A stretch of DNA of 35,382 bases from Minisyncoccota bacterium (GTDB lineage Bacteria; Patescibacteriota; Minisyncoccia; Phycocordibacterales; UBA2100), in assembly GCA_041675105.1 (NCBI GenBank), contig JBAYUL010000001.1, positions 1 to 35,382 on the forward strand, in the 5' to 3' direction. Numbering within the stretch: position 1 is the stretch's first letter; the number at the start of each line of letters is the position of its first letter. Positions 2,811 through 23,479 of this stretch are shown in pieces. Under the pieces are notes generated by a model. The model made no database searches and was not told the DNA's origin. It saw only the letters and a list, made by a program, of their open reading frames with translations. A program made the translations under genes and the position numbers.

Positions 2811-2948
2811 TTATTGTGGAAAGCAAGCGTAGACGATAAGGGCAAGCGAGAGCGCGATGGCGGCCAATCCTGCAATGCCGCCGTAACTCCGGTCTTTGCG
2901 CAGAAACGGTGCCTTTTGAGTTCCCTCGATGCATCGCGGGGTGCTCAT
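2811..2948 (-). CDS. Small membrane protein (45 aa), hypothetical
   Basis: Not in the ORF track. Hand translation: MSTPRCIEGTQKAPFLRKDRSYGGIAGLAAIALSLALIVYACFPQ*. A strong SD (GGGAGG) lies 5 nt upstream of the ATG. Has one hydrophobic helix and a downstream terminator-like hairpin. Confidence 0.45.
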   Translation of the reverse strand: MSTPRCIEGTQKAPFLRKDRSYGGIAGLAAIALSLALIVYACFPQ

Positions 2949-3036
2949 GACGTCCTCCCTGCTTGAAGAGCCGACTCATCCGGTGAACCCAGAACGAGCG
3001 ACCAGCAAAACTATGGCATACACCCGACTTTTCCGC

Positions 3037-3042
3037 TAGTAT
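3037..3042 (+). promoter_or_regulatory. -10-like box TAGTAT, 6 nt upstream of ATG 3049
   Basis: ccgcTAGTATgtgccgATG; supports ATG 3049 over GTG 3043 as the ychF start. Confidence 0.35.
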
Positions 3043-3048
3043 GTGCCG

Positions 3049-4149
3049 ATGTCACTCTCAGTCGGTATCGTAGGTCTTCCAAACGTCGGAAAATCGACGC
3101 TTTTTAATGCATTGACGAAGAAAGGAGTACCAGCCGAAAATTATCCCTTCTGCACCATTGACCCCTCGGTCGGCGTCGTAGCGGTACCCGACCATCGTCT
3201 TCAGGCTCTCAGCAAGATGTCGAATACCCAGAAGATCGTTCCCGCTATCGTCGAGTTCGTGGATATCGCGGGTCTGGTCAAAGGAGCTTCGGAAGGGGAA
3301 GGGCTTGGGAATCAATTTTTGCAGCATATCCGCGAAGTGGATGCCATCGCTGAGGTGGTACGCATGTTCGATGACGAAGACGTGCATCACGTAGCGGGGC
3401 AAGTGGATCCGCTTCACGATATCGAGATCATCGATATGGAGCTGGTGCTCGCGGACCTACAATCGGTCGAGAAGCGACTCGACCGTGTTGAGCGCGACTC
3501 AAAGGGTGGAGATAAGGAATTGCTGGCAGAACGCGACGCACTTCTCAAAATAGTGCCCGCCCTTAAGGAAGGAAAGGCGGCGAGAACCGTAGAGCTGAAT
3601 GAAAAGGAACTTGCCGCGCTTCACACGCTCCATTTGCTTACAATGAAGCCGATCTTGTACGTACTCAACAGAAAGGCGGGTACCGTGAATGTGGATGCCG
3701 AGAATGGCGAGCGTTGGCGCGAGCTGAGAGATTTCTTCGACCGCGCACACGCGCAGTATGTGATCGTCGACGCGGGGGTGGAGAGCGATCTTTCCGATGT
3801 TCACGATGACGAGCGGCCTGATTTTCGACGCGAACTCGGAGTAGCGGACGATGGCATCGATGCGCTCATCAAGGGCAGCTATTCGTTGCTGAATCTTATT
3901 TCATACTTTACGACGGGTGAGAAAGAGACGCGCGCATGGACTATTACAAGAGGCGCGACCGCGCCGGAAGCAGGGGCAGCAATTCACACCGATTTTCGCG
4001 ATAAGTTCATCCGCGCAGAGGTGATCGCGTGGGACAAGCTGCTTGAGATCGGCTCATGGAGCGGAGCCCGCGACAAAGGTCAGATCCGTTCTGAAGGAAA
4101 AGAATACGTGGTCCAGGACGGGGATGTGATGGAGTTCAGACACAGCTAG
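3049..4149 (+). CDS. ychF: Ribosome-binding ATPase YchF (Obg-like GTPase family)
   Basis: 'VGIVGLPNVGKSTLFNALT' P-loop, 'FVDIAGLVKGAS' G3 motif and a C-terminal TGS-like 'FIRAEVIAWD...KGQIRSEGKEYVVQDGDVMEFR'. The ORF track starts at GTG 3043. Confidence 0.95.
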   Translation: MSLSVGIVGLPNVGKSTLFNALTKKGVPAENYPFCTIDPSVGVVAVPDHRLQALSKMSNTQKIVPAIVEFVDIAGLVKGASEGEGLGNQFLQHIREVDAIAEVVRMFDDEDVHHVAGQVDPLHDIEIIDMELVLADLQSVEKRLDRVERDSKGGDKELLAERDALLKIVPALKEGKAARTVELNEKELAALHTLHLLTMKPILYVLNRKAGTVNVDAENGERWRELRDFFDRAHAQYVIVDAGVESDLSDVHDDERPDFRRELGVADDGIDALIKGSYSLLNLISYFTTGEKETRAWTITRGATAPEAGAAIHTDFRDKFIRAEVIAWDKLLEIGSWSGARDKGQIRSEGKEYVVQDGDVMEFRHS

Positions 4150-4199
4150 AGAAACATACCGACCCATGGTCGTTGGCGGACGTAGAATATCATTAAGAA

Positions 4200-4224
4200 G
4201 ATCGCCCGCGGGCTGCGGGCGATC
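4200..4224. terminator. Perfect 10-bp hairpin between convergent genes
   Basis: GATCGCCCGC-gggct-GCGGCGATC-type perfect stem (4200-4209 pairs with 4215-4224). On the minus strand it is followed by TTCTTAAT; there is no T-run on the plus strand. Confidence 0.55.
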
Positions 4225-4235
4225 ACGTCGTGACA

Positions 4236-4592
4236 TCAGTCGCGAACATTGGATACGTCGGTGACCCTTGCCTCCACGCGCTGACAAAACCAATGCTCGT
4301 GAATGCGCGCGCTCACGATAAATGTTGCCTCAGGGGCAGCAATGGCAAGGTGCTTCTTGATCTCAGGCACCTCGATCATATAGGCTCTAATATGGAGACG
4401 CATCGCAGTTTTCCAGCCGAGGCACGAGCTTTCCACGAGCCTTGTCTTGTCCCAGTCGATCACACGATCTCTTCGCATCACGCTCGGTGCAACTAGCCAC
4501 GAGTGCGTAAACTGAGGTTCTGAGTCTGGGGGTTGAGCGCAGCTTGTGACGATCAGCGCGATGCTTAGCGACGCTGCTTGGAGTAGGCGCAT
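4236..4592 (-). CDS. Hypothetical lipoprotein
   Basis: N-terminal signal peptide with lipobox 'LIVTS-C' (MRLLQAASLSIALIVTSC). A GGGG SD-like element lies ~9 nt upstream. No recognisable domain. Confidence 0.6.
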   Translation of the reverse strand: MRLLQAASLSIALIVTSCAQPPDSEPQFTHSWLVAPSVMRRDRVIDWDKTRLVESSCLGWKTAMRLHIRAYMIEVPEIKKHLAIAAPEATFIVSARIHEHWFCQRVEARVTDVSNVRD

Positions 4593-4789
4593 GGGAGTTT
4601 CCCCGTATGTTGAGTGATTTCCGCACAGATGAAATCACGACGTGCACAACGTGTCAAGTGTGTGGTGCCTCGTTCGGAGAAGAGGTTGGGTAATGGCCGT
4701 AATTCACCTGCTCGCACTTAAATAGACCGAGGAAAAACCGCGGACTATCGTCAAGCAGTGTGCAATGTATGAGGCAAATGGTGTGAAGG

Positions 4790-4827
4790 CAAAAAATTGG
4801 GTCCCCGGCACGAGCAGCGCCGGGGAC
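4790..4827 (-). terminator. Rho-independent terminator of the OMP gene
   Basis: 9-bp stem GTCCCCGGC / GCCGGGGAC (4801-4809 / 4819-4827). On the minus strand it is followed by CCAATTTTTTG, 25 nt after the stop at 4852. Confidence 0.7.
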
Positions 4828-4851
4828 TTTATTGATTCGCTCGCGCTGCGA

Positions 4852-5586
4852 TCAGAGCGAGAACTTCCAGAGCGCGTAGGCCAGCACCTTGTCGACATCG
4901 GCCTTGATGTCGTGGCGGAACGTGTACAGATTGTCCGCGGTGCTCGACTTGAGCGCTGTGTAGTAGCCCTTCTGGTACTCGAAGCCGAAAACGAGGTAGT
5001 CGAACGGCGCGTACTTGAAGCCGGCGAGCAGCATCGGGCCGACGGCGCCGTAATCGTTGCACGTCGTCGAGTTGTAGCCGGGGAAGCTGAACCGCTCGCA
5101 TGCCGACAGCACGCCGTAGTTCAGGCCGCCGCCGACGTAGAGCGCGTAGCGATTGAAGGCGACGCCGATCGTGCCAGCAGCGGTGCCGGACCACTTGAGC
5201 GAGGTCGAAAGCAGGTCGCTGTAGCCGCAGCCGGTGCACGCGAGTTCCTTGGAACCGGTGATGTTCGACTTCTCGTAGGCGACGAATGCGCCGACGACGA
5301 GCCATTGCCACTGGTAGTCGAATCCGGCGCGGACGCCAAAGAAACGGCCCTTCATGTCGAACGAATTATCGGTGGCCCCGGAGAAGGCCGGGAAGCCGGA
5401 ATAATTGTAACTCGACGTGTCGGAATTGTTGGCGGCCGCGGTGCCGCCGTAGGCGCCGATGGTGATGCCGGTCCAGCTGAACGGAGCAGTGCTCTGATAG
5501 CCTTTGGTGAGGTCGGCGGCGGAAGCGGCGGAACACGAAGCGATGAGCGCAGCGGCCGCAATTGCGGTTTTGAGCCGTGAAAGCAT
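4852..5586 (-). CDS. Outer-membrane beta-barrel protein, Omp25/Omp31-like (OMP_b-brl type)
   Basis: Signal peptide ending 'ASAADL', 'APFSWTGITIGAYGG', repeated amphipathic beta-strand pattern ('GVRAGFDYQW', 'ALYVGGGLNYG', 'LLAGFKYAP', 'LVFGFEYQKG') and an aromatic C-terminus 'LWKFSL'. A GGGGGA SD is present. Codon third positions are strongly G/C. Confidence 0.8.
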   Translation of the reverse strand: MLSRLKTAIAAAALIASCSAASAADLTKGYQSTAPFSWTGITIGAYGGTAAANNSDTSSYNYSGFPAFSGATDNSFDMKGRFFGVRAGFDYQWQWLVVGAFVAYEKSNITGSKELACTGCGYSDLLSTSLKWSGTAAGTIGVAFNRYALYVGGGLNYGVLSACERFSFPGYNSTTCNDYGAVGPMLLAGFKYAPFDYLVFGFEYQKGYYTALKSSTADNLYTFRHDIKADVDKVLAYALWKFSL

Positions 5587-5711
5587 GCTATTTCCCCCAT
5601 ATGGAGTACGTTAAGATCAGGAAGCCGGGATGGCAGTCCAGCGTCTATTATAGCATATCATTGACATAGCGTCAATAATCACGCCTGCAAAGTTAGCTCG
5701 CAATAGAGCGC

Positions 5712-5717
5712 TATACT
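5712..5717 (+). promoter_or_regulatory. -10-like box TATACT, 6 nt upstream of ATG 5724
   Basis: gcgcTATACTagtggcATG. Confidence 0.4.
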
Positions 5718-5723
5718 AGTGGC

Positions 5724-6677
5724 ATGGAAAAACCAAAAGTAACACCTAAGGACTTCGTGTTCTGGGTCGGGGCTATGGCCGCGCTCTACGGCGGCGTCGT
5801 TTCTTTTATCACCCTTATATTCGATTACATAAATCACGCATATCCGAATCCTGTGACGGGTGGGTATTACTATGATCCGTATTCGAGCAGCATCAGTTAT
5901 GAGACGGCGTCTCTCATCGTGCTCGCACCTGTATTCCTATTGCTCATGCGTCTCATACGCCGCGATATCGCGAACGATCCGACGAGGGGCGATATATGGA
6001 TCCGTCGCTGGGCACTTTTTCTCACACTGTTTCTCGCGGGTGCGACAATGGTCGTGGACCTCATCGTCCTACTGAATGCGTATCTGCAAGGAGAGGACCT
6101 CACGGTCGGTTTCTTGCTGAAAGTGCTCACGGTACTTCTCGTCGCCGGCCTTGGCTTCATGCACTTCATGGCGGATCTGTGGGGGTATTGGGAACGTGAG
6201 CGAGCGCGTGCGCGAATGGTCAATTGGGGAGTCGCCGTACTTGTTGTCTTTACGATAGTCGCCGGATTCTTTATTGTCGGCACTCCACAGCAAATGCGTC
6301 ATCTGAAACAGGACGCGCAGCGAGTACAGGATCTCCAGAATCTACAGTGGCAGGTGGTGAGTTATTGGCAACAGAAGCAAAAGCTTCCGACCACGCTCGA
6401 GCAGTTGAACGATCCGATAACGAACTACATCGTGCCGGTGGATCCGCAGACGAGGGAATCATACGAATACAAGTCAACGGGCGCGCTTGCGTTCCAGCTG
6501 TGCGCGACGTTCGCAGAGGTCGGCAACAGTGCGAATGATGGGCGCTCTGTCGCCAAGCCGGTAAGCGTCGACGGGGAGATCGCGCAAGACAATTGGCAGC
6601 ACGCGGCCGGTGATGTGTGTTTCGACCGCACCATAGATCCTGAGCGCTACCCTCCATTTAGCAAACAGACAAAATAG
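5724..6677 (+). CDS. DUF5671-type multi-pass membrane protein with an extracytoplasmic C-terminal domain
   Basis: 'KDFVFWVGAMAALYGGVVSFITLIFDYINHAYPN...YYYDPYSS...IRRWALFLTLFLAGATMVVDLIVLL' matches the DUF5671 pattern common in Parcubacteria, recalled from memory and not searched. Confidence 0.75.
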   Translation: MEKPKVTPKDFVFWVGAMAALYGGVVSFITLIFDYINHAYPNPVTGGYYYDPYSSSISYETASLIVLAPVFLLLMRLIRRDIANDPTRGDIWIRRWALFLTLFLAGATMVVDLIVLLNAYLQGEDLTVGFLLKVLTVLLVAGLGFMHFMADLWGYWERERARARMVNWGVAVLVVFTIVAGFFIVGTPQQMRHLKQDAQRVQDLQNLQWQVVSYWQQKQKLPTTLEQLNDPITNYIVPVDPQTRESYEYKSTGALAFQLCATFAEVGNSANDGRSVAKPVSVDGEIAQDNWQHAAGDVCFDRTIDPERYPPFSKQTK

Positions 6678-6820: not shown

Positions 6821-9800
6821 ATGAAATACGATCACAAGTCGATTGAAAAGAAGTGGCAAAAGTTCTGGAGTGAGAACAAGATATATACGACGCCGGATAG
6901 CGCTCCGGGAAAGGACAATTTTTATCTGCTGGTAGAGTTCCCATACCCGTCTGGCAACCTCCACGTCGGTCACTGGTACGCGTTCGCGGTACCCGATATC
7001 CTTGCACGTTATGAGAGGATGAGGGGCAAAAACGTGATGTATCCCATCGGCTTTGATGCGTTCGGTCTCCCCGCGGAAAATGCGGCCATCAAGAATAAGC
7101 TCAATCCGCGCGATTGGACGGAGAAAAATATCGCGTATATGAAAAAGCAAATTGAGTCGATGGGGACATCGTTCGATTGGTCGCGGGAAGTGTCTACCAT
7201 CGACCCGGCGTACTACAAGTGGACGCAATGGCTTTTTCTCCAGCTCTACAAAAAAGGCTTGGTGTATCAGAAGGAAACCGCGGTCAACTGGTGTCCCGTG
7301 GACAAGACGGTGCTCGCCAATGAGCAGGTGATCGACGGCAAGTGTGACCGCTGCGGGTCGGAGGTAGAACAGCGGCAAATGCTCCAGTGGAATATCAAGA
7401 TCACTGATTACGCCGATAGACTCATCGACGACCTTGCGGCACTCGATTGGCCGGAGCAGATAAAGGAATCGCAGCGCAATTGGATAGGCCGCAGCGAGGG
7501 TGCTGAGATCGATTTTGCGTTAGACCTTGGAGCAAACGATGGCTCGCGATTTCTACTTCTGCACGGTCGCCAAGGGTCGCCTGAAGCCAACTTCTTTCCG
7601 TGGCTGAAGTCCGAACTTGAGGCAAGGGGCTATGAAGTAGAAGTGCCGCTTTTACCCAACACCGCTGAACCAAACGACGAAGAACAAGCAGATTTTGTTG
7701 TGAAGAACTGCAGGATAGATGAGCGGACTGTGATCATTGGCCACTCATTCGGAGGGGTGGTCGCAATGCGCCTCTTGGAGCGGGGACACAAGGCGCGTCG
7801 CGTCGTGTTCGTCGCGACGCCATGCAGCGGCGAATTTCTTGATGGGAAGGAGCGTCCGTCGGTCAAAGCGGCGATACTGAAGGGATTCGATTTTTTGGCC
7901 GTGCGGAAGAACGCTGACACTATTCAGGTGTTACCGGATGAATCTGATCCTGTCGTGCCCTTCGCTGACGCGGAGCTGCTCGCAAAAGAGACGGGCGGTA
8001 TGCTGGTGCGCGGCAAGGGCACCGAATACCATTTCACCGCGAAAGTAGAGCCGGATGTGCTCATGATGTGCGTCCCAACGATACGCGTATTCACGACGCG
8101 GCCGGACACGCTCTTCGGGGCGACGTATCTGGTGCTCGCGCCTGAGCATCCGTGGGTAACACTCGCGCTCGCGCACAAGACCGTTCTGAAGAACAACGAC
8201 GAGGTTCGAGCGTACGTTGACCGGACGGAGAGGATGTCCGACATGGACCGGCAAACGACCAGAGAGAAGACAGGCGTCCAGCTCAAGGGCGTGGACGCTA
8301 TTAATCCCGCAAACGGCGAAAAGATCCCGCTTTATATTGCCGACTACGTACTCGGGCACTACGGCACCGGCGCCATCATGGCAGTACCCGCGCACGACGA
8401 GCGCGATTTCGAATTCGCGAAAAAGTTTGATCTTCCGATAAAGCCCGTCGTAGAACCACAATATGTCGGGAAAGGGGAGGGTGAACCCAAACAAGGCGAA
8501 GACTTTGTAAAACGTAACGCGGTATGCGTTGTTGTCCGAAATCCGAAGGACGACACGTATCTTTGCATAAGCTGGAAGACAATGCTCATGCACGGGCTTG
8601 TGACGGGAGGCATTGAAGATGGCGAAGATCTTGTGGAAGCGGCGAAACGTGAAGTGCGGGAGGAGACAGGGTATAAGAATTTACGACTTGTCTGGAATCC
8701 TGGCATTGCGAATCACACTTTGTTCTATCATCGGGTAAAAAAACAGAATCGGTGGGCGCGATTTACGAACATATTCTTTGAGCTCGAGAACGACGAGCGT
8801 GACCCTATTGATCCCAAAGAGGAAGCGTTGCATGAAGTACTGTGGCTCAAGAGAGACAAGCTGAAGGATTTCTTTTCGGTATATGAAGGACGCTTCATCC
8901 TTGACCTGCTTGATCATCCCGACTATGTCCACACGGATGCGGGCGTGCTCCACAATTCCGGTGAGTTCGACTGGATGGGCTCCGAGGAGGCCAAGAAAGT
9001 AATGACAGGACGATTCGGACGCAAGAAAACGACGTACAAGCTTCGCGACTGGATAGTCTCGCGTCAGCGCTACTGGGGTGTGCCGATACCGATGATCCAT
9101 TGCGAGAAATGCGGCAACCAGCCAGTGCCCGATGAGCAGCTACCCGTGCTTCTACCCGATGTTGAAGATTACCTACCGGAAGGGAGCGGGAAATCGCCGC
9201 TTGCCAAAGTGAAGGATTTCGTAGAGATACTGTGTCCGCGGTGCGGAGGTAGAGCGCAGCGCGAAACAGATACGCTCGATACATTCGTCGACTCATCGTG
9301 GTACTTTTTGCGTTATCTCGACGCGAACAACGCGGACGAATTTGCGGCGCGAGAGAAACAAGGGATGTGGATGCCGGTGAATATGTACAGCGGGGGAGCC
9401 GAGCATACAACGATGCATCTTTTGTATAGCCGCTTTTGGCACAAAGCGCTCTTCGACATCGGGCTTGTCGGTGATGCGGAGCCGTACGCCCATCGTGTGA
9501 ATCATGGTCTTGTTCTGGGGCCTGACGGACAAAAGATGAGCAAATCAAAGGGCAATGTGCTTGATCCGGACGAGGTGGTGGAGAGGCTCGGAGCGGACAC
9601 GGTACGCATGTACCTTGCCTTTATGGGCCCGTACACGGGTGGAGCCAGCTATCCCTGGAATCCCGACGGGGTCGTGGGAGTGCGACGATTTCTCGAACGT
9701 GTGGCGCGGACCGAAGAGTACGTCCAGAGCTCGCACGTCGACGAATTGGATATGATATTGAACAAGACCATTCAGAAAGTCGGGGACGATATTTCAGTCT

Positions 9801-10204
9801 TTAAATTCAACACGGCAATCAGTCAGCTGATGATTCTGATGAATGCTATCGAGAAGACAAAGAAACTGGGGACAGACCAATGGAAACTCTTGCTGCACAT
9901 TCTTGCTCCGTTCGCACCTCACCTTGCTGAAGAGTTGTGGCATGTACTCGGCGGAACGGCATCCATTCATCTGGAGTCGTGGCCGAAGTATGATCCTTCC
10001 AAAACAGTCGATGACGAGATCGTTTTGGCGGTGCAAGTGGACGGGAAGACGCGAGGTGAAGTGAGGGTGAAAGCAGATGCAGATAAAGCCACTATCGAAA
10101 CGGCTGCGCGCGAAGCGGTCGCATCCAGACTGGAAGGGAAGACCGTGACGAAAACGATCGTCGTGCCAAAGCGGCTCGTGAACTTCGTGCTTAGCGCCTC
10201 GTGA
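6821..10204 (+). CDS. leuS: Leucyl-tRNA synthetase, unusually long (1127 aa) with two nested extra domains
   Basis: 'MKYDHKSIEKKWQKFW' canonical N-terminus at ATG 6821; the ORF-track TTG 6722 extension has no homology-like content. Motifs seen: HIGH 'HVGH', 'NWIGRSEGAEIDF', CP1 'TTRPDTLFGATY' and 'AHDERDFEFAKKF', 'YKLRDWIVSRQRYWGVPIP', KMSKS 'KMSKSKGN'. Confidence 0.95.
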   Translation: MKYDHKSIEKKWQKFWSENKIYTTPDSAPGKDNFYLLVEFPYPSGNLHVGHWYAFAVPDILARYERMRGKNVMYPIGFDAFGLPAENAAIKNKLNPRDWTEKNIAYMKKQIESMGTSFDWSREVSTIDPAYYKWTQWLFLQLYKKGLVYQKETAVNWCPVDKTVLANEQVIDGKCDRCGSEVEQRQMLQWNIKITDYADRLIDDLAALDWPEQIKESQRNWIGRSEGAEIDFALDLGANDGSRFLLLHGRQGSPEANFFPWLKSELEARGYEVEVPLLPNTAEPNDEEQADFVVKNCRIDERTVIIGHSFGGVVAMRLLERGHKARRVVFVATPCSGEFLDGKERPSVKAAILKGFDFLAVRKNADTIQVLPDESDPVVPFADAELLAKETGGMLVRGKGTEYHFTAKVEPDVLMMCVPTIRVFTTRPDTLFGATYLVLAPEHPWVTLALAHKTVLKNNDEVRAYVDRTERMSDMDRQTTREKTGVQLKGVDAINPANGEKIPLYIADYVLGHYGTGAIMAVPAHDERDFEFAKKFDLPIKPVVEPQYVGKGEGEPKQGEDFVKRNAVCVVVRNPKDDTYLCISWKTMLMHGLVTGGIEDGEDLVEAAKREVREETGYKNLRLVWNPGIANHTLFYHRVKKQNRWARFTNIFFELENDERDPIDPKEEALHEVLWLKRDKLKDFFSVYEGRFILDLLDHPDYVHTDAGVLHNSGEFDWMGSEEAKKVMTGRFGRKKTTYKLRDWIVSRQRYWGVPIPMIHCEKCGNQPVPDEQLPVLLPDVEDYLPEGSGKSPLAKVKDFVEILCPRCGGRAQRETDTLDTFVDSSWYFLRYLDANNADEFAAREKQGMWMPVNMYSGGAEHTTMHLLYSRFWHKALFDIGLVGDAEPYAHRVNHGLVLGPDGQKMSKSKGNVLDPDEVVERLGADTVRMYLAFMGPYTGGASYPWNPDGVVGVRRFLERVARTEEYVQSSHVDELDMILNKTIQKVGDDISVFKFNTAISQLMILMNAIEKTKKLGTDQWKLLLHILAPFAPHLAEELWHVLGGTASIHLESWPKYDPSKTVDDEIVLAVQVDGKTRGEVRVKADADKATIETAAREAVASRLEGKTVTKTIVVPKRLVNFVLSAS
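7523..8077 (+). other. In-frame insertion in LeuRS: YdeN/RBBP9-type alpha/beta serine hydrolase domain (~185 aa)
   Basis: 'FLLLHGRQGSPEANFFPWLK', nucleophile elbow 'IIGHSFGG' (Ser codon 7745-7747), 'DESDPVVPF' and 'EYHF'. Lies between the LeuRS motifs 'GAEIDF' and 'IRVFTTRPDT'. Confidence 0.8.
8450..8935 (+). other. In-frame insertion in LeuRS: Nudix hydrolase domain (~150 aa)
   Basis: Perfect Nudix box G-x5-E-x7-REVxEExGY: 'GGIEDGEDLVEAAKREVREETGY' (8606-8674). Lies between the LeuRS motifs 'AHDERDFEFAKKFDLPIKPV' and 'GVLHNSGEFDWMGSEEAKK'. Confidence 0.85.
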
Positions 10205-17272: not shown

Positions 17273-17776
17273 ATGGAAAACGTCGAGATAGTGGAGATAA
17301 CGCCGGACGAGTGGAAGACACTCCGCGATCTTCGTAGAGAGGCCGTCATGGAATCACCTGCGGCGTTCGGTCAGAATGAGGAAGAGGTGGATTCAGTCGA
17401 AGAGAAAGAGTGGAGAACGCGGCTCTCCAAGCATTCGTACTTGTTCGTAAAAAAGGGGAATGCGTTCGTTGGTATGGGTTGTGTTGTGCCCGAAAAGAAT
17501 GCGAAAAGTAAGCACGGGGCGAACATATACGGCCTCTACGTTTCTCCTCAAGAGCGGGGCAATGGCACTGGTCGAAAGCTGCTCGAGGCGCTTATCGAGC
17601 ACGCGAGGCGATGGTATCCCGACCTTATCAAGATATCGCTCATCGCTTCGGCAACTCAATCCGCCGCACTCTCGCTTTATGAGAGTACGGGATTCAAACG
17701 GATCGGAGTTCTTGAGAAGGAGATGAATATCAATGGAACGTACGTGGATGAAGTAATGCTCGTGAAATTCTTATAA
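17273..17776 (+). CDS. GNAT family N-acetyltransferase
   Basis: Acetyl-CoA binding motif A 'YVSPQERGNGTGRKLLEALIEHA' and 'YESTGFKRIG'. Confidence 0.85.
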   Translation: MENVEIVEITPDEWKTLRDLRREAVMESPAAFGQNEEEVDSVEEKEWRTRLSKHSYLFVKKGNAFVGMGCVVPEKNAKSKHGANIYGLYVSPQERGNGTGRKLLEALIEHARRWYPDLIKISLIASATQSAALSLYESTGFKRIGVLEKEMNINGTYVDEVMLVKFL

Positions 17777-17784
17777 CATTTTTT

Positions 17785-18285
17785 ATGAAAATCATCCGCA
17801 GAGCGGGGATGTATCTTTCGCTTTCTTTCATTGGGGCGCTCCACATCATCCGCTATTGGGTATCCATATTAATGGGCGATGAGGGATCGCAAGGGGTGCG
17901 CATCATTCTCGTCGATGACCGTCGGGTGCTCCTGGTCGCGCACTGGTATGCACCGTGGACATGGACGCTTCCGGGCGGCGGAGTTGATCGCGGAGAAACT
18001 GCCGAAGCAGCCGCGATGCGCGAGGCGCTTGAAGAAACGGGTCTCAAAGTGAATTCGGTCGCCGGCGAAATAGGTACCTATACCGGCTCGATGGGGAAGA
18101 GAGACCTGCTTACCGTATTCTATACGGGCGATTTCAGCGGTTCCCTCGCGCTTACTCCAAATTTCGAGATCATGGCCCGCAGCTGGTTTGATATCGATAA
18201 TCTGCCCGCGGAGCTCTCACCGGCGAACAGGCGACGTATAGAGGCTTACAGGGACGGCATCAGAGGGGAGCGTGCCCGTTGGTAA
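17785..18285 (+). CDS. Nudix hydrolase
   Basis: Nudix box 'GGGVDRGETAEAAAMREALEETGL'. Confidence 0.85.
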   Translation: MKIIRRAGMYLSLSFIGALHIIRYWVSILMGDEGSQGVRIILVDDRRVLLVAHWYAPWTWTLPGGGVDRGETAEAAAMREALEETGLKVNSVAGEIGTYTGSMGKRDLLTVFYTGDFSGSLALTPNFEIMARSWFDIDNLPAELSPANRRRIEAYRDGIRGERARW

Positions 18286-18324
18286 TCGCTTGGGCCCGGT
18301 CGTGTCGTAATATACCTATTGACC

Positions 18325-18352
18325 ATGTCGCACAATATATCTTTTGCGACGT
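18325..18352. other. dif-like / tyrosine-recombinase core-type site (11-6-11): ATGTCGCACAA|TATATC|TTTTGCGACGT, left junction of the element
   Basis: The arms are inverted repeats (inner 9 nt match 8/9; 11 nt match 9/11) around a 6-bp spacer. The spacer plus right arm form the 15-bp direct repeat. Confidence 0.6.
18336..18350 (+). repeat. Direct repeat copy 1 (TATATCTTTTGCGAC)
   Basis: Identical 15-mer at 23128-23142. Confidence 0.9.
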
Positions 18353-18363
18353 ATAGCCATCTG

Positions 18364-18387
18364 CAAAAAGGGGTTGATTCTACCCCT
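18364..18387 (-). terminator. Rho-independent terminator at the end of the element's last gene
   Basis: Minus strand: AGGGGT-agaatca-ACCCCT followed by TTTTTG. It overlaps the stop codon at 18386-18388. Confidence 0.6.
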
Positions 18388-18808
18388 AAGCTCGAACCAG
18401 CTTGTCGTGCTGATAGCTACTAAGACCTACTGCTTGCGGTGCGGGACACAAATGCCCTCTCGCGTGGTGATACCGTAATAATCCCCTAAGCGATCGCAAT
18501 GCTCTGTCTTCTGCGTACTTAGTCGTCTCTTGCTCCTTCAGATACCGTTCAAAGGCTCTTAAATGGCGTATTTCGATCTCCCCCACATCTGAAATATCGG
18601 CAAACCGAGCAAACCTCGTCAGAATGGGTTTTTCCATTGGAGCCATCGTAGGAGCTGTCAGAACCTTATGACTAAGGTAATCCTGTATCTGCGATTCAAT
18701 TACGCGCTCTTTAAAGCGTCCTAACAGGCTAATTCGATTGATCATGTTCATTATGACTTGAGTCAAGGAGCTAAAGATTATTTTACATGAGAATTGAGCC
18801 GTCTGCAT
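18386..18808 (-). CDS. Stand-alone protein resembling the N-terminal SAM-like (core-binding) domain of tyrosine recombinases; no catalytic domain
   Basis: 'IEIRHLRAFERYLKEQETTKYAEDRALRSLRGLLRYHHARGHL' fits the Phage_integrase_N/SAM-like helix pattern. The ORF ends with its own terminator 36 nt from the element border, so there is no room for an RHRY catalytic domain. Confidence 0.5.
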   Translation of the reverse strand: MQTAQFSCKIIFSSLTQVIMNMINRISLLGRFKERVIESQIQDYLSHKVLTAPTMAPMEKPILTRFARFADISDVGEIEIRHLRAFERYLKEQETTKYAEDRALRSLRGLLRYHHARGHLCPAPQAVGLSSYQHDKLVRA

Positions 18809-18810
18809 AT

Positions 18811-19578
18811 CTATTCCTTTGACCCTTTAAACACACGGTGCCGGCAATTGCCCAGATACCGAGAGTAATACTGCTCGTCCGTCAGAACTTCCTCACCATT
18901 CAGCTCGTCTAAGAGAGACCAAAGTGATGACGTTCCTCGCGAAATGAATGGACGCAAGACATTCCTAGATGCCACATATGATTTCTGGTTTCTTAATCGG
19001 GGATCGGTGAAAGCTTTCGCCATATATTTTGCAAGGTAGTTGGCTATCTTGATATGCCCGTCAGTTTTTTTGTAGTAAACGAATCCCATACCCCATTTCA
19101 TTGCGATTGTTCGAGTAGTCCGTTCTTGTGATACCACCTCCTCGGGTAGCCCCCAGAACAAACTGTGAAAATGAACAGCTCCACGTTTTTGGAATTCAGG
19201 GACGGCAATGTACTTGAATGATTTGCCGTAGCTGTAGCGGAGAGCTTGGTTAAAAGCGCGGAGACGTTTGTATCCGTAAGAGAGATCGGTAATGATATCT
19301 TTGCAGGTAAGAGTAATGAGTACAGGAAGTTCAGATCCGACAAGGTTAGCTTCGACCAGTCTTCTAAAATCCATTTTTGCGCGTCGCGAATGATCGTGTC
19401 TTTTCCCCAACTTCCCTTTCGATACAGAATTGCCTCCATCAGCTCCCAAATCCACATTTGAAGCGTTAGTCTCACGTTTTGGTGATGGGCGTCTTCGTCG
19501 ATCCACCACCCTTGGTTCTCGTTGGTATTCATATATTTCTGTTTTATTCCCGTATTGAATTACTTTGTTGTAGCCCAT
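18811..19578 (-). CDS. HUH-superfamily rolling-circle replication initiator (two-tyrosine, phiX174 gpA-like)
   Basis: Motif 1 'VLITLT' (19320-19306), motif 2 HUH 'AVHFHSLFW' (HFH at 19173-19165), motif 3 'NYLAKYMAK' = YxxKY (19038-19024). Start set at ATG 19578, because the upstream part of the ORF-track call overlaps a terminator and a hairpin. Confidence 0.8.
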   Translation of the reverse strand: MGYNKVIQYGNKTEIYEYQREPRVVDRRRRPSPKRETNASNVDLGADGGNSVSKGKLGKRHDHSRRAKMDFRRLVEANLVGSELPVLITLTCKDIITDLSYGYKRLRAFNQALRYSYGKSFKYIAVPEFQKRGAVHFHSLFWGLPEEVVSQERTTRTIAMKWGMGFVYYKKTDGHIKIANYLAKYMAKAFTDPRLRNQKSYVASRNVLRPFISRGTSSLWSLLDELNGEEVLTDEQYYSRYLGNCRHRVFKGSKE

Positions 19579-19600
19579 TGAATTCTTAGCTATTTGTACT

Positions 19601-19676
19601 GAGTGGCGCGTATAGCAAGTCTGGACAGCCGGCCGCGGCGCTAAAGCGCCTGCGGCACGCCTGTCCGGCGCCACTC
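19601..19676. other. 76-nt GC-rich composite stem-loop upstream of rep: candidate double-strand origin / nick site
   Basis: Outer stem GAGTGGCGC/GCGCCACTC (19601-19609/19668-19676), middle stem GGACAG/CTGTCC (19623-19628/19661-19666), inner ~12-bp GC stem with TAAA loop. A 13-nt asymmetric internal loop reads AGACTTGCTATAC on the rep strand. Confidence 0.5.
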
Positions 19677-19686
19677 CCCTCTCTCT

Positions 19687-19715
19687 GTATAAAAATTCCC
19701 TGCATGACAGCAGGG
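19687..19715 (-). terminator. Rho-independent terminator after the wHTH gene
   Basis: Minus strand: CCCTGC-tgtcat-GCAGGG followed by AATTTTTATAC, ~35 nt after the stop at 19751. Confidence 0.65.
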
Positions 19716-19750
19716 TGCTACAGAACGAGAACCAAGTGTATGGGAACGTT

Positions 19751-20635
19751 TTAACTTTGTTTTGACTCGTCCGAATCTTCGCCAAAAACAAGGCGATATC
19801 CCACTTGAGCGACATTGTGGAGCACGTCGAGCTTCAGTTTCTCCTTGATGCCTTGAATGATCGGATACAGATCCATTCGATCTGTTTTCGTAGGTTCAGT
19901 CCGATTAGGGTAAGCTGCCCGTATAAGATCAGCGTGCGAAGCCTGCATATCAGGACTCTCACACAGGGCAAGTAGCACCTTAAACTCCTTTGATGAGGGC
20001 GTGAAAGTTCCTCGGACATCGCTGAGGACGAAGTCTCCTGTACGGCGGTTGAGGAGTAGAGGGCATTCTTTAGCCGGAGGCTCTTTGGGTGCTTCCATTT
20101 TGGGCAACTTCTCAACCTCTGCAAGGAGCATCAAATGAAACTGTTTTAGCCTATTCTCGAATGATTCACGATTCGCATATCGGCGGGCAAGCCGCTTTAG
20201 ATTCTCCCTGCCCCATTTTGTGGGTGATCTCTTTGCATATTCGGGGTTGATATTCTCGACGCCTTTCATCATGACAAGAGCTTCGGGGTATAAATCATAC
20301 TCAGGCTCGTTGATAGCGTTTTTATAGTCCTCAAGTGGGTCATACACCCATGCTTCAGTAAAACAACCGACGGCATAGAGACTAAAGCGCTCAAGTCGAT
20401 CTGTGCGTTCTGCCCTATCATCAGCCTCCTCGTCAGTTAGTTTGTGATCACGTTCCCATACGGCAATGTGCTTTTCTCGAAGTTCGTTTTCGCTCGCCTC
20501 ATAAAGCCCGTGCAAGACAGGGTCTTTAATTACAAGGTCAAAATAGTGATGTAGGTTTTGATAGAACCTCGAATTGTTGTCGCTCTCGAACACAGCATCG
20601 TAGCGGATTTTTAGGGACTCTTGCAGATTAATCAT
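19751..20635 (-). CDS. Protein with C-terminal OmpR/PhoB-type winged-helix DNA-binding domain; N-terminal ~190 aa unknown
   Basis: C-terminus 'FTPSSKEFKVLLALCESPDMQASHADLIRAAYP...TDRMDLYPIIQGIKEKLK...AQVGYRLVF' follows the Trans_reg_C pattern. There is no receiver domain. Confidence 0.6.
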   Translation of the reverse strand: MINLQESLKIRYDAVFESDNNSRFYQNLHHYFDLVIKDPVLHGLYEASENELREKHIAVWERDHKLTDEEADDRAERTDRLERFSLYAVGCFTEAWVYDPLEDYKNAINEPEYDLYPEALVMMKGVENINPEYAKRSPTKWGRENLKRLARRYANRESFENRLKQFHLMLLAEVEKLPKMEAPKEPPAKECPLLLNRRTGDFVLSDVRGTFTPSSKEFKVLLALCESPDMQASHADLIRAAYPNRTEPTKTDRMDLYPIIQGIKEKLKLDVLHNVAQVGYRLVFGEDSDESKQS

Positions 20636-20644
20636 ATAGGCCTT

Positions 20645-21991
20645 TTACGGCAGGTCCATTTGTCGATTTATTTCGTCAACCCACGCAGAGGCAAGCAGTT
20701 TAAGATTTGCCATATTGTCTGCACCTTGCTCAAGAAACCTTTCGAGATAATCCAATGCTTCTGAAGGATTTTGTAATTTTCGATAGTACAAAAAGCCAAT
20801 CCAAAAAAGCAGCTGAGGTCTTCGGTCGCCGTCAGCAATCATCTTTTTCGAGAAATTAATGCTGTCATTCGAAATGCGAGTATCTCCTTCAGAGGTGTGC
20901 CGTTCAAGACTCCTACAGACTCGTTGTGCATGGTCAAAGTCTTCATTCACCAGGAGCAAAAATGCTCTGTTAAATTTCCACGTGACGTCTCCGGTAGGCG
21001 CTGCTCGTTCCGCGATATCCGTTGTTTCTAGTGCGGCACTAGCGTCATTATCATATTTAAACTCGATTATAGAACGCAGAATAAGAGCGGAATAATTGCG
21101 CTGCGCGATTGTTAACGCCGCTCCCACTTCTTCTCGTGCCTCATCCAGCCTGCCTGCATTAAAGGCCGCGATTCCTTTAACAGCGTGGGCGTCACTAATA
21201 ACATTGTCCAATTTGGAATATATTGCTTGAACATTCGGTGCCAAGGGCTTAGGGAGGGCCGCAATTTCCTCTTTTAAGCGAGTATGTAGATTCAGCGTAG
21301 AGTCGGGTTTACCCGAGATAAGTGCGGCAACGCCAGTAATGTATCTGACTGTGTAATAAATCATATCTCCCGCTATTTCTGAGGCGTGGAACGACATATC
21401 TTCGGTAAACTGCAGACGCACTGGCAATGCTTCTCGGAAATCTCGCGAGAGTTTACTGCCGATGTTTATAGAAACTGGACGATGTGAGACGTAGCCTTCG
21501 AGATCAAGATAGGTGAAGGCTCCCCTATGGCGTGCAAAACCCCAAATCCATATATCGCCTCTAGTTTTTCTATTCCGCCTTGCGATATTCCCCCCGTTAA
21601 CAGTTCTAGCGAAATGTTCTGGCAGATCAATCACATGCGTTGAATCACTAATTCCGCCAGTAACTAGGTCGGCTCGGAGCTTCCTCATCAGGTCACTTTT
21701 CAATACTTCTGCCGACGGGTCATGTTCGGTTGAGATAGAGATTACTATATTCAACCTGTCTCTTTTCTTTCTCGGTAGCCGGAATCTGCCAAACAACCAG
21801 ATAGCAATGAATATAGACACGGTTGCAACGTCAAAATAGAACAAATACTGCTTCGGAAGAAAGGCGTTTAAGATCACGCTGTTTAAGGTTCCTAGAACAA
21901 GCATGATTAATACCACCCAGCCAATAAGCGCCTTGAAGCCATAAAACGGCCTCAACCAACTGACGATTTCCTCGGCAAACTTATCGGGCAT
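20645..21991 (-). CDS. Membrane protein: two N-terminal TM helices, unknown central domain, C-terminal TPR-like repeats
   Basis: Hydrophobic helices 'ALIGWVVLIMLVLGTLNSVILNAF' and 'VATVSIFIAIWLFG'. C-terminal helical repeats ('GIAAFNAGRLDEAREEVGAALTIAQ', 'FWIGFLYYRKLQNPSEALDYLERFLEQ'). The stop is 9 nt before the next gene's ATG. Confidence 0.6.
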   Translation of the reverse strand: MPDKFAEEIVSWLRPFYGFKALIGWVVLIMLVLGTLNSVILNAFLPKQYLFYFDVATVSIFIAIWLFGRFRLPRKKRDRLNIVISISTEHDPSAEVLKSDLMRKLRADLVTGGISDSTHVIDLPEHFARTVNGGNIARRNRKTRGDIWIWGFARHRGAFTYLDLEGYVSHRPVSINIGSKLSRDFREALPVRLQFTEDMSFHASEIAGDMIYYTVRYITGVAALISGKPDSTLNLHTRLKEEIAALPKPLAPNVQAIYSKLDNVISDAHAVKGIAAFNAGRLDEAREEVGAALTIAQRNYSALILRSIIEFKYDNDASAALETTDIAERAAPTGDVTWKFNRAFLLLVNEDFDHAQRVCRSLERHTSEGDTRISNDSINFSKKMIADGDRRPQLLFWIGFLYYRKLQNPSEALDYLERFLEQGADNMANLKLLASAWVDEINRQMDLP

Positions 21992-22049
21992 TGCCGAATC
22001 CTACTGCTCATGAAGGTTTGACACAACTACAGAACATGCCAGAAAACGC

Positions 22050-22082
22050 AAAACCACTCTTTCAGGTGGCCCTATGTCTAAC
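22050..22082 (-). repeat. 33-nt hairpin-containing repeat, copy A (terminator-like; between the cargo genes)
   Basis: AAAACCACTCTTTCAGGTGGCCCTATGTCTAAC, 29/33 identical to 23045-23077. On the minus strand the CCACCTgaaaGAGTGG hairpin is followed by TTTTGCGTTTT. Confidence 0.7.
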
Positions 22083-22113
22083 GCGCCTTTAAAACACGAA
22101 GAATAGTAGAATT

Positions 22114-23109
22114 TTAAGCCTGCTGAGCACGTGCCTCAAGCCAAAGAGGTAGAAGTGCATTCTTCTTTGCTTTTATATCCTTGAGCCAGTCCCTGAAATC
22201 CTTACGGTGCTCCTCTTTCAAAATATGTGCATCCACGAAGTCTAAGAAGTACGCCGTAGTGCCTAGGCCTAAGCTGGCCAGCCAAAAACGCTCACGACCC
22301 ATACCGTGTTTCAAATAAGGATTTCCATGCACGATCTCGGAAACGTAAGAATAAATTTCATATTGCTTTTTTGCGCCAAACACCGTCGCTGCTCTTTTCG
22401 AAAACGACGTCATTTTCTCTTCTGTTAGTACCTCCCTCCAGGGCGGAATGAGGAGTTTTCGATCTCGCAGCCAATAAAAATCAAACTCCGAATGCTTCCT
22501 GGGGTAATCTGGCATCTCTCTGACTAGCAGGGACTCGTTTAAGGCTAAAAGTACCTCGAAACCTCTTATATCGGGAACTAAATGAAAAGTCCGTAGCTGA
22601 TAGGTCAAAATGATCAATGCCCTCCGGTCCTCGCTCATTATTGAAGTGTCGTGGACATAGAGATTTCGAGCATAAATGTCCATCAACGCTCTGAGAGTCG
22701 ATAGTCTAAAGAATGATTTATCATCTTCAAGACGTAAGAACTCATCTGCAATAAAACTCAAATACTGGGAATAAACTTCTAGAGATTTAACACGAAACTG
22801 ATTGAAAAGTATCGCAACAGGATCATCTCTCTGATCAGGATGCTGCGCGTGTTCGTGGATTTGTTTTGCTCTCGCATCGAGCATGATAACGCCGCTCCGC
22901 ATAGACGCCGCATAGCCCTCAAAAACTGAGTCTTCCTCCCTAACCATGATCTCATTATACATATATGCGACTAACCGGTTCCTAAAATAAATCACACCAA
23001 ATTTCGTCCCGTTGTCGTCCCACATGGGGAATATGCTTAAGCATAAAACCACCCTTTCGGGTGGCCCTATGTTTAGCTCCTTGAAGGCTTTTAAGTGTAT
23101 TTTCGTCAT
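22114..23109 (-). CDS. Hypothetical protein (331 aa as called; true start may be ATG 23025)
   Basis: Long AT-rich ORF with no TM segment and no motif I can assign. Codons 10-21 are encoded by repeat copy B, which raises doubt about the 5' end. Confidence 0.6.
   Translation of the reverse strand: MTKIHLKAFKELNIGPPERVVLCLSIFPMWDDNGTKFGVIYFRNRLVAYMYNEIMVREEDSVFEGYAASMRSGVIMLDARAKQIHEHAQHPDQRDDPVAILFNQFRVKSLEVYSQYLSFIADEFLRLEDDKSFFRLSTLRALMDIYARNLYVHDTSIMSEDRRALIILTYQLRTFHLVPDIRGFEVLLALNESLLVREMPDYPRKHSEFDFYWLRDRKLLIPPWREVLTEEKMTSFSKRAATVFGAKKQYEIYSYVSEIVHGNPYLKHGMGRERFWLASLGLGTTAYFLDFVDAHILKEEHRKDFRDWLKDIKAKKNALLPLWLEARAQQA
23045..23077 (-). repeat. 33-nt hairpin-containing repeat, copy B
   Basis: AAAACCACCCTTTCGGGTGGCCCTATGTTTAGC. 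On the minus strand: CCACCC-gaaa-GGGTGG (6-bp stem, GAAA loop) followed by TTTTAT. Confidence 0.7.
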
Positions 23110-23116
23110 CCCCTAT

Positions 23117-23144
23117 CATTCTCGTTCTATATCTTTTGCGACAC
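23117..23144. other. Hybrid (half) core site at the right junction: CATTCTCGTTC|TATATC|TTTTGCGACAC
   Basis: The spacer and right arm are identical to the left-junction site. The left arm is unrelated to ATGTCGCACAA. Confidence 0.55.
23128..23142 (+). repeat. Direct repeat copy 2 (TATATCTTTTGCGAC)
   Basis: Identical 15-mer at 18336-18350. Confidence 0.9.
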
Positions 23145-23329
23145 GTAGGCCTAGGCACATCGGCCTGATATAGTTTACACATCCGGCTGTGAGTTGCCTG
23201 TCCGGATACTGGCCGCTGTAGGCCAGTGAGTGTTGAGCCATGTTTGTCTTGAATGTCGGATCCCGCGTTGGGATTCGATCCCCTAGACTTGCCCCATACA
23301 CCGGTCGTCGGTCGCGGGGCTTTTTCTTT
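23143..23329 (+). ncRNA. Candidate structured RNA or long structured 3' UTR ending in a terminator (family unknown)
   Basis: No convincing ORF. Adjacent perfect hairpins ATCCGG-N15-CCGGAT (23181-23207) and ACTGGCC-gctgta-GGCCAGT (23208-23227), then GGATCCC/GGGATTC pairing and a terminator with a T-run on the plus strand only. Confidence 0.25.
23291..23329 (+). terminator. Rho-independent terminator candidate (plus strand)
   Basis: GCCCC...ACCG-gtcgt-CGGT...GGGGC composite hairpin followed by TTTTTCTTT. Confidence 0.5.
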
Positions 23330-23467
23330 GCTATGCTATGAGGAGCTGGTGCCGGACACTGCGTCCCGCGCCAGCAGTACAGCGGCTGTCGCTGTTGCCC
23401 CTATACTTTTTCAATACAATCTTCGATTGTCACGAAAAAGTCCCTAGGGGCTGTTTCTATGGCGGTC

Positions 23468-23473
23468 TATACT
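23468..23473 (+). promoter_or_regulatory. -10-like box TATACT, 6 nt upstream of ATG 23480
   Basis: gtcTATACTcacgatATG. Confidence 0.4.
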
Positions 23474-23479
23474 CACGAT

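Follow-up and report, generated by a model that had tools for sequence, protein, structure and literature searches.

The stretch of DNA analyzed here, hereafter the window, is 35,382 bp long (positions 1 to 35,382 of contig JBAYUL010000001.1, assembly GCA_041675105.1). It comes from a Minisyncoccota bacterium. A preliminary description of the window had treated the host as a member of the candidate phyla radiation (CPR), and this holds: the organism is a Kaiserbacteria-like member of Paceibacterota. At nucleotides 6821–10204 of the forward strand lies leuS, the coding sequence for a bacterial-type leucyl-tRNA synthetase (LeuRS) of 1127 amino acids plus stop. Two further hydrolase domains, called guests below, are hosted by this enzyme. 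One is a Nudix domain of 156 residues (residues 547–702; 8459–8926, + strand), nested in a surface loop of the editing domain CP1, and it is the main subject of this study. The other is an alpha/beta serine hydrolase (residues 235–420; 7523–8080, + strand). The open reading frame (ORF) extends from 6722, or from the ATG at 6821, to 10204 on the + strand with an uninterrupted frame. Its product is 100% identical to a protein already in the databases (P0030). It matches the NCBIfam model TIGR00396 (leuS_bact) with 968.7 bits (cutoff 548.4), and the closest solved structure is the LeuRS of Thermus thermophilus (1H3N, E = 1.3e-215).

The signatures of the synthetase are all present. The class I catalytic site, as read from the sequence, contains the HIGH signature in the form HVGH (residues 48–51; 6962–6973, + strand); in 110 orthologues, H48 and G50 never vary, and V49 and H51 rarely do. 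The core of the CP1 editing domain corresponds to residues 421–546 (8081–8458, + strand), and Pfam PF13603 is matched at residues 400–547. It includes the threonine-rich motif TTRPDT (residues 425–430; 8093–8110) and the editing aspartate D526 within AHD (8393–8398). T426, R427, D429, T430, H525, and D526 are invariant in the same 110 orthologues, and so are all five residues of the KMSKS signature, K905, M906, S907, K908, and S909 (9533–9547, + strand). A leucine-specific domain precedes KMSKS in the LeuRS of Thermus and E. coli, and is not universal in the family. In the alignment of the window LeuRS with 1H3N, no counterpart of Thermus residues 577–634 was found. Residues 895–909 (~9500–9550), where this domain would precede KMSKS, read GLVLGPDGQKMSKS. 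Because HIGH, KMSKS, TTRPDT, and the editing aspartate are invariant or nearly so, the host is judged to be a normal enzyme. With both synthetic and editing motifs intact, it looks fully functional.

The boundaries of the Nudix insert are clear from the alignment with 1H3N, which breaks at residue 546 (Thermus 364) and restarts at residue 703 (Thermus 376). The 156 residues in the window correspond to 11 residues in Thermus (365–375), and the closest relatives lacking Nudix have 5–9 residues at the insertion site. Pfam PF00293 (NUDIX) is matched at residues 564–681 (8510–8863) with 51.3 bits, against a gathering threshold of 21.1 (E = 1.5e-13). The Nudix box, GGIEDGEDLVEAAKREVREETGY, occupies residues 596–618 (8606–8674, + strand) and agrees with the pattern GX5EX7REUXEEXGU at every position. 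The extra residues and the box had been recognized in the preliminary description, and the translation of 8450–8935 is identical to the peptide quoted there. Its placement of the insert at an exit hinge, in a short linker returning to the catalytic core, needs correction, because the site is a surface loop of CP1 and is followed by ~40 more CP1 residues. The editing-domain profile PF13603 (185 positions) is matched upstream of the insert from position 9 to ~143. Downstream, at residue 703, where the 1H3N alignment resumes, begins the remainder of CP1 (residues 703–744, GVLHNSGEF...YKLRDW; 8927–9052, + strand). This part consists of a GVLxNSGEF strand, a helix, and the YKLRDW strand that goes back to the catalytic core, and its residues G708, L710, R742, D743, and W744 are conserved in orthologue alignments. 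By these alignments, the insert is nested inside CP1, and the last helix of this domain and the strand returning to the core lie downstream of it.

The isolated insert was modeled by AF2 with an alignment of 54 family members, and the model has a mean predicted local distance difference test score (pLDDT) of 94.9 and a predicted template modeling score (pTM) of 0.88. For the full-length LeuRS these values are 89.4 and 0.75, with pLDDT of ~89–96 for the guests and the Nudix junctions. Comparison of the insert model with the PDB by Foldseek resulted in 440 matches at E ≤ 0.001, and the best 50 listed are all Nudix enzymes with probability 1.0. The top match is the Enterococcus faecalis protein 2AZW (template modeling score, TM, 0.73/0.80), followed by NudI/YfaO. 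The predicted fold of the insert is the alpha/beta/alpha-sandwich of Nudix enzymes. Together with its complete box, the insert is apparently a complete and active Nudix domain. An intein was considered for this insert and rejected: there is no Hint or intein match in Pfam, the junctions (VVEP/QYV and YVHT/DAG) are wrong, and the fold is Nudix. A recent horizontal insertion was also considered from base composition. The GC content is 0.47–0.48 over the insert versus 0.51–0.60 in the flanks; this dip is mild, lies within the range seen elsewhere in leuS, and is uninformative.

The same architecture is widespread. The 120 closest LeuRS clusters (57–72% identity) were drawn from NCBI, JGI, ENA, and Logan assemblies, with contigs of up to 853 kb. 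Both guests are present in 104 of them, only the serine hydrolase in 12, and only Nudix in 4. Named members belong to Ca. Kaiserbacteria or Parcubacteria. In the 108 Nudix-bearing orthologues, G596, E611, E615, and G617 of the box are retained in all 108, E614 in 105, R610 in 103, and E602 in 100. Outside the box, R565, N643, E667, H671, and W675 of the insert are conserved as well. In a larger set of 254 embedded and 26 free-standing copies, box positions E15, E18, and E19 hardly vary. The retention of box residues, which the preliminary description had proposed to check, extends from the 108 close orthologues to some 250 embedded copies, and the pattern of substitutions points to clear purifying selection on the Nudix box in the orthologues.

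An exhaustive search was performed against 1.84 billion representatives clustered at 50% identity, with the C-terminus of CP1, the Nudix domain, and the return to the core as the query. The best 150 matches are mostly LeuRS, aligned in a single stretch spanning the entire query. A hidden Markov model (HMM) built for the insert detects Nudix in 137 of 149 representatives at 50% identity. By a single-protein scan, seven GTDB species genomes contain close copies, all within long LeuRS ORFs and with canonical boxes. That a chimeric contig or a gene-calling error fused a Nudix gene into leuS is almost inconceivable against these results. The window is indeed a metagenome-assembled contig, and GC is slightly lower across the insert than in its flanks. 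On the other side, the frame is unbroken across leuS, and the same design is seen in 104 of the 120 closest clusters from several assembly sources, in the 137 representatives, and in the seven GTDB genomes. The architecture is not an artefact, an outcome that the preliminary description had left to be checked: more than 100 independent assemblies of Ca. Kaiserbacteria/Paceibacterota share it.

Some of these assemblies have peculiarities of their own. In one 27.5-kb contig (L001), the Nudix-bearing LeuRS at 2925–5819 is broken up over five successive ORFs, and fragmentation also affects many neighboring genes. An assembly rich in frameshifts (long-read) seems a likelier explanation than a true pseudogene. 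Among genomes with close LeuRS-Nudix copies (L013, L014, L016, and L018), the taxonomic labels given by the submitters disagree, with "Bacillota bacterium" and "uncultured Candidatus Saccharibacteria bacterium" on one side and Paceibacterota/Parcubacteria on the other. The inconsistent labels suggest mislabelled or misbinned metagenome-assembled genomes (MAGs).

The serine hydrolase guest replaces Thermus residues 237–242 and sits just past the first CP1 strand (GAEIDF). Pfam PF06821 (Ser_hydrolase) is matched at residues 245–398 with 33.3 bits (cutoff 22), and several alpha/beta-hydrolase models match too. The guest contains HG and a GHSFG elbow (GHSxG), and AF2 gives pLDDT of 89–98 over it. 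The triad S309, D373, and H404 is kept in 116 of 116 orthologues, and on this basis the putative esterase also looks active. The bond in aminoacyl-tRNA is an ester. The preliminary description had stated that two hydrolases flank CP1 symmetrically. Both are real and lie roughly on the two margins of the domain; the assignment of a linker or exit hinge does not apply.

Related CPR LeuRS proteins contain guests in other numbers, positions, and types. A tandem pair of Nudix domains is inserted before LDWPE...RNWIG in P0151, P0152, P0155, and P0210, with or without a third copy at the site used in the window. Three proteins (P0154, P0169, and P0274) have one Nudix domain at the site of the window esterase and another at the site of the window Nudix, where P0192 and P0269 have tandem copies. 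In P0206, Nudix is in the Zn-knuckle region upstream of RETDT, and a HAD_2 domain is the guest at the Zn-knuckle site in P0175. A Ham1/RdgB domain is placed between the catalytic and anticodon-binding domains of P0191, and P0261 has an NTP_transf_5 guest. Altogether, at least six distinct insertion sites are used, and one to three Nudix copies are present per protein.

Nudix copies within one LeuRS are 20–47% identical to one another, and are nearer to copies in other LeuRS proteins or to free-standing genes; the second copy of P0206 is 55% identical to a free-standing clade. The low identity between copies of the same protein indicates old or independent acquisitions. A recent tandem duplication was rejected as the source of the multi-copy LeuRS for the same reason, same-protein copies being closer to copies of other LeuRS. 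A crude neighbor-joining (NJ) tree, calculated without support values from 261 embedded and 120 free-standing domains, contains at least five transitions between free and embedded forms, and in this tree the window Nudix falls in an all-embedded clade. From these comparisons, the association of this Nudix family with LeuRS is recurrent and plastic.

The guests and the core of LeuRS also differ in divergence. When close orthologues (P0031–P0149) are compared with the window, identity is 65–77% for the core, 28–76% for Nudix, and 31–63% for the esterase, and the values are uncorrelated. For example, P0031 is 70% identical in Nudix and 35% in the esterase, and P0045 is 35% identical in Nudix and 63% in the esterase. 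The uncoupled identities suggest either that leuS alleles exchange cassettes, in a mosaic mode of evolution, or that rates of change are very uneven.

A search with the insert alone found mostly free-standing Nudix proteins of Paceibacterota, 154–197 residues in length. Of these, P0002 and P0004–P0021 are 42–50% identical to the insert across 87–95% of the query. They are colinear with it from the N-terminal lead-in (EPLYIDxG...PF-ER) to the C-terminal helix, and because this colinearity is end to end, the insert is essentially a whole gene product. The family profile matched 402 database proteins at E ≤ 1e-10. The best 120 of the 402 are single-domain Nudix proteins of 154–197 residues, except for one LeuRS fragment, and come from Staskawiczbacteria, Nomurabacteria, Kaiserbacteria, and others. 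In the numbering of the insert, R565, L581, N643, L655, E667, and W675 are conserved whether the domain is embedded or free-standing. In the joint alignment of the two forms, the G, E, E, G, E124, and W132 positions are invariant, and R22, N100, and L112 almost invariant. In the main clade of free-standing proteins the box departs from the canonical form and reads GQT..EAARAE, Q replacing the glutamate of GX5E and A the arginine of REUXEE.

One genome contains the free form without the embedded one. The gene order DUF5671-leuS-cysS found in the window recurs in the Kaiserbacteria MAG GCA_028286865.1. In the LeuRS of this MAG (P0055, MDB5238432.1), the alpha/beta hydrolase is retained, and a loop of 6 residues occupies the Nudix site. 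The same MAG encodes a free-standing Nudix protein (P0357, MDB5238542.1) that is 50% identical to the window insert. A second candidate for such a fusion/fission pair, P0062 and P0360, comes from different samples and is not pairable. In the five loci of free-standing homologues examined, leuS is not adjacent, and there is no consistent partner gene. The MAG above also contains genes for COX1, COX3, COX4, and UbiA (L006, 10050–12268); respiratory-oxidase components such as COX1, COX3, and COX4 are not generally expected in CPR genomes. At another locus (L010, 2449–5019), three different Nudix genes are located within 2.6 kb around a free-standing member of the insert family.

A separate stand-alone Nudix gene is present in the window at 17785–18285 (+ strand; PF00293, 76.8 bits), as had been described. 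It belongs to another Nudix family than the insert. As a source or paralogue of the insert it was rejected, because the BLASTP similarity of 26.9 bits is limited to the Nudix box region; no relationship beyond the box is seen in this comparison. A GNAT gene is directly upstream of it (17273–18285 for the two, + strand). A GNAT gene is likewise directly upstream of a free-standing member of the insert family in two other loci (L003, 7413–8489; L004, 1142–2218). The arrangement could be a conserved pair or a coincidence. The region ~18000–24000 of the window is an island of lower GC (0.46–0.50 versus ~0.55 elsewhere). At its edge, the ORF at 18811–19815 (− strand) encodes a rolling-circle-type replication protein (Pfam REP_ORF2-G2P, 61 bits). 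The island may be an integrated phage or a plasmid-like element.

Neither sequence nor fold comparison distinguishes the substrate of the insert. The best profile matches in the PDB are 2AZW and two hydrolases of diadenosine tetraphosphate (Ap4A), from lupin (1F3Y, E = 1.9e-8) and Aquifex (3I7U, E = 5.3e-8). The matches to 1F3Y and 3I7U reach 36–37 bits, mainly in the box region. ADP-ribose, NudB, and NudC-type enzymes reach 31–33 bits in the same search, and Dcp2 is within a few bits too. The Foldseek matches include CT771 (Ap4A-bound), the diadenosine polyphosphatase Rv2985, and 5GG8. Among the curated NCBIfam Nudix equivalogs, RppH, NudB, NudE, NudI, YfcD, NudC, and YtkD were all far below their cutoffs; the best is RppH (NF001938), with 24.2 bits where 116 are required. 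A tyrosine ~16–18 residues after the box is said to be conserved in Ap4A hydrolases, which serves here as a lead. In the insert, position +17 is F635 (F in 79 and Y in 29 of the 108 orthologues) and position +18 is Y636 (Y in 69, F in 35), so that both are aromatic with no fixed tyrosine. As far as these comparisons go, Ap4A clearance is neither supported nor excluded. The preliminary description had proposed that the Nudix module clears Ap4A or aminoacyl-AMP "at source". This finds no specific support, as the matches to Ap4A hydrolases are no better than those to ADP-ribose, nucleoside triphosphate (NTP), and NADH pyrophosphatases.

With about an even chance of being right, we consider the insert an autonomous, active nucleotide pyrophosphohydrolase for which LeuRS is the carrier. 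A whole Nudix enzyme, from a free-standing family widespread in Paceibacterota, is spliced in frame into a CP1 surface loop of the housekeeping LeuRS. It would be a Mg2+-dependent hydrolase that cuts the pyrophosphate bond of a soluble nucleotide, either NTP-like or dinucleoside-polyphosphate-like, and would use the same substrate as its free-standing relatives. LeuRS would mainly be a carrier, providing one-to-one co-expression and co-localization with an ATP-consuming enzyme in a streamlined genome. Nudix would be no step in aminoacylation or tRNA editing. This reading is favored because the catalytic machinery is intact and selected, the free form works alone, LeuRS works without Nudix, and the site, copy number, and type of guest are interchangeable.

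Several facts weigh against LeuRS being only a carrier. The same Nudix family entered LeuRS repeatedly, judging from the transitions in the crude NJ tree and the low identity between same-protein copies. Such repeated capture is hard to explain unless attachment to LeuRS was selected, which would imply functional coupling rather than hitch-hiking. In the full-length AF2 model (pTM 0.75), the junctions are confident (pLDDT 89–95) and are not flexible linkers, which is compatible with a fixed pose of Nudix on CP1. Embedded copies mostly have the canonical box, in contrast to the variant of the main free-standing clade, and given this difference the two forms may differ in activity. Finally, all matches by sequence (NCBIfam and PDB profiles) and by fold (Foldseek) are generic, and the substrate is therefore not assignable.

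If attachment is itself the purpose, Nudix might hydrolyze Ap4A, diadenosine triphosphate (Ap3A), adenylate side products, or non-canonical ATP analogues ahead of the synthetic site. Recurrent capture of this Nudix family by LeuRS at several sites would fit such a clearance of by-products, and so would the confidently modeled rather than disordered junctions, the Ap4A hydrolases 1F3Y and 3I7U among the top profile matches, and CT771 and Rv2985 among the fold matches. One related LeuRS has the Ham1/RdgB inosine triphosphatase (ITPase), another cleaner of purine NTP. We nevertheless regard the proposal as rather unlikely. The similarity to Ap4A hydrolases is confined to the box region and only a few bits from that to ADP-ribose, NudB, NudC, and Dcp2 enzymes, the insert is closest in fold to a MutT-like protein without characterised function and to the NTPase NudI, and no curated NCBIfam family is reached. 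The enzyme is free-standing in many genomes, one of which has LeuRS without the insert, and where it is embedded, insertion site and copy number vary. Nudix, perhaps with the esterase, could instead have the CP1-bound end of tRNA as its target, for instance removing a pyrophosphate-linked or nucleotide-linked block, or could bind a signaling nucleotide that shifts CP1 between its poses for aminoacylation and editing. Both guests border the domain that accommodates the 3' end of tRNA and have complete catalytic residues, the junctions are modeled confidently, and Nudix enzymes of the RppH, NudC, and Dcp2 types that act on RNA ends are among the weak profile and fold matches. A role of this kind is distinctly improbable, as there is no specific likeness to RNA-acting Nudix (for NF001938 RppH, 24 bits versus 116), free-standing homologues conserve the same residues without any LeuRS, and copies are also found far from CP1, in the Zn-knuckle region and before RNWIG. 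The literature search described below gave it no support.

That the insert is an inactive relic or expansion segment, whose fold is retained for stability or spacing with hydrolysis irrelevant, seems very improbable. Some copies deviate from the canonical box (R to A, K, or M; E to Q), one protein (P0100) has no precomputed Pfam NUDIX match, and the insert evolves much faster than the core of LeuRS. However, the three box glutamates and the additional E667 and W675 are essentially invariant among sequences only 30% identical overall, the mark of catalysis being maintained by purifying selection. A loop of 6 residues suffices in close relatives, so there is no apparent structural need for the insert. 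A more general speculation is that LeuRS of Paceibacterota is a hub for hydrolases (one to three Nudix domains, alpha/beta esterase, HAD phosphatase, and Ham1 NTPase), attached both near the CP1 pocket for the 3' end of tRNA and farther away, and acting in cis on molecules that LeuRS binds or produces. The guests might repair or deblock tRNA ends that are damaged or modified by toxins, degrade inhibitors resembling aminoacyl-adenylates, or clear by-products of the Ap4A type. We think this quite unlikely; if true, the synthetase would contain its own, so far unrecognized, level of quality control or self-defence.

Should the attachment be no more than hitch-hiking, the insertions would still be a striking natural map of where LeuRS tolerates inserts, and would exemplify the fusion of genes in the streamlined genomes of CPR bacteria. 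A functional attachment would be a new link between the hydrolysis of nucleotide pyrophosphates and tRNA charging or proofreading. Natural LeuRS variants with and without the insert, plus the free-standing enzyme, offer a directly testable system. Bacterial aminoacyl-tRNA synthetases (aaRSs) are usually held to be architecturally conservative, and domain accretion is seen as mainly eukaryotic. Here, a phylum-level bacterial group has intact foreign enzymes nested in the editing domain of LeuRS.

The fused genes are misnamed in the databases. The window LeuRS (P0030) is called "alpha/beta fold hydrolase", and other guest-bearing LeuRS are called "class I tRNA ligase family protein", "NUDIX domain-containing protein", or "RdgB/HAM1" (P0191). 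In the opposite direction, three free-standing Nudix genes of 157–162 codons are named "leuS"; other free-standing members have generic names such as "NUDIX hydrolase" or "MutT family". Annotation errors of this kind are spreading (P0030, P0079, P0125, P0144, P0299, P0310, P0311, and P0357), and distort metabolic reconstructions of CPR genomes.

The preliminary description had asked whether this architecture was already catalogued. It is present in public databases with precomputed Pfam hits, misnamed and uncharacterised, and no paper describing it was found. A full-text literature search, with most subscription journals outside its coverage, found no paper on Nudix or another foreign hydrolase inside LeuRS or any CPR synthetase, and nothing on multiple Nudix copies or on Ham1 or HAD guests in synthetases. 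Domain accretion in aaRSs and fusions of Nudix are both known in kind.

The free-standing Nudix proteins of Paceibacterota/Parcubacteria (P0002, P0004, and P0357) resemble the insert in length, colinearity, the non-box R, N, E, and W, and phylum. They differ in being independent genes not adjoining leuS, and their main clade has GQT..EAARAE where the insert has GE...KRE. The E. faecalis MutT/nudix protein 2AZW and NudI/YfaO (6DT3 and 3OGA) share the fold (TM 0.62–0.80), the single-domain size, and the box helix with the insert, but are only 16–22% identical to it and are not nested in another enzyme, and 2AZW is itself uncharacterised. The Nudix Ap4A hydrolases, such as those of lupin (1F3Y) and Aquifex (3I7U) and human NUDT2, destroy a side product of aaRSs, and the insert might work in a similar way. 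Membership of the insert among them is not established, as its matches to Ap4A hydrolases (E ~1e-8, box region) are indistinguishable from those to other subfamilies. In the axis of LysRS, Ap4A, and NUDT2, synthetase and hydrolase are separate proteins. CP1 itself and the INS domain of ProRS are, like the insert, accessory or editing domains nested in an aaRS; they act on aminoacyl-tRNA. The nearest curated precedent encountered is NCBIfam NF040702, the isoleucine--tRNA ligase with an N-acetyltransferase domain, whose guest is GNAT and not Nudix; at least one fusion of another enzyme with an aaRS is thus already recognized by curators. Mycobacterium smegmatis MutT1 (5GG8) combines Nudix with a second domain in one chain, and NadM-Nudix is a further end-to-end fusion. 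In both, the Nudix domain is joined end to end with a metabolically related partner, whereas the window Nudix is nested in an enzyme of translation.

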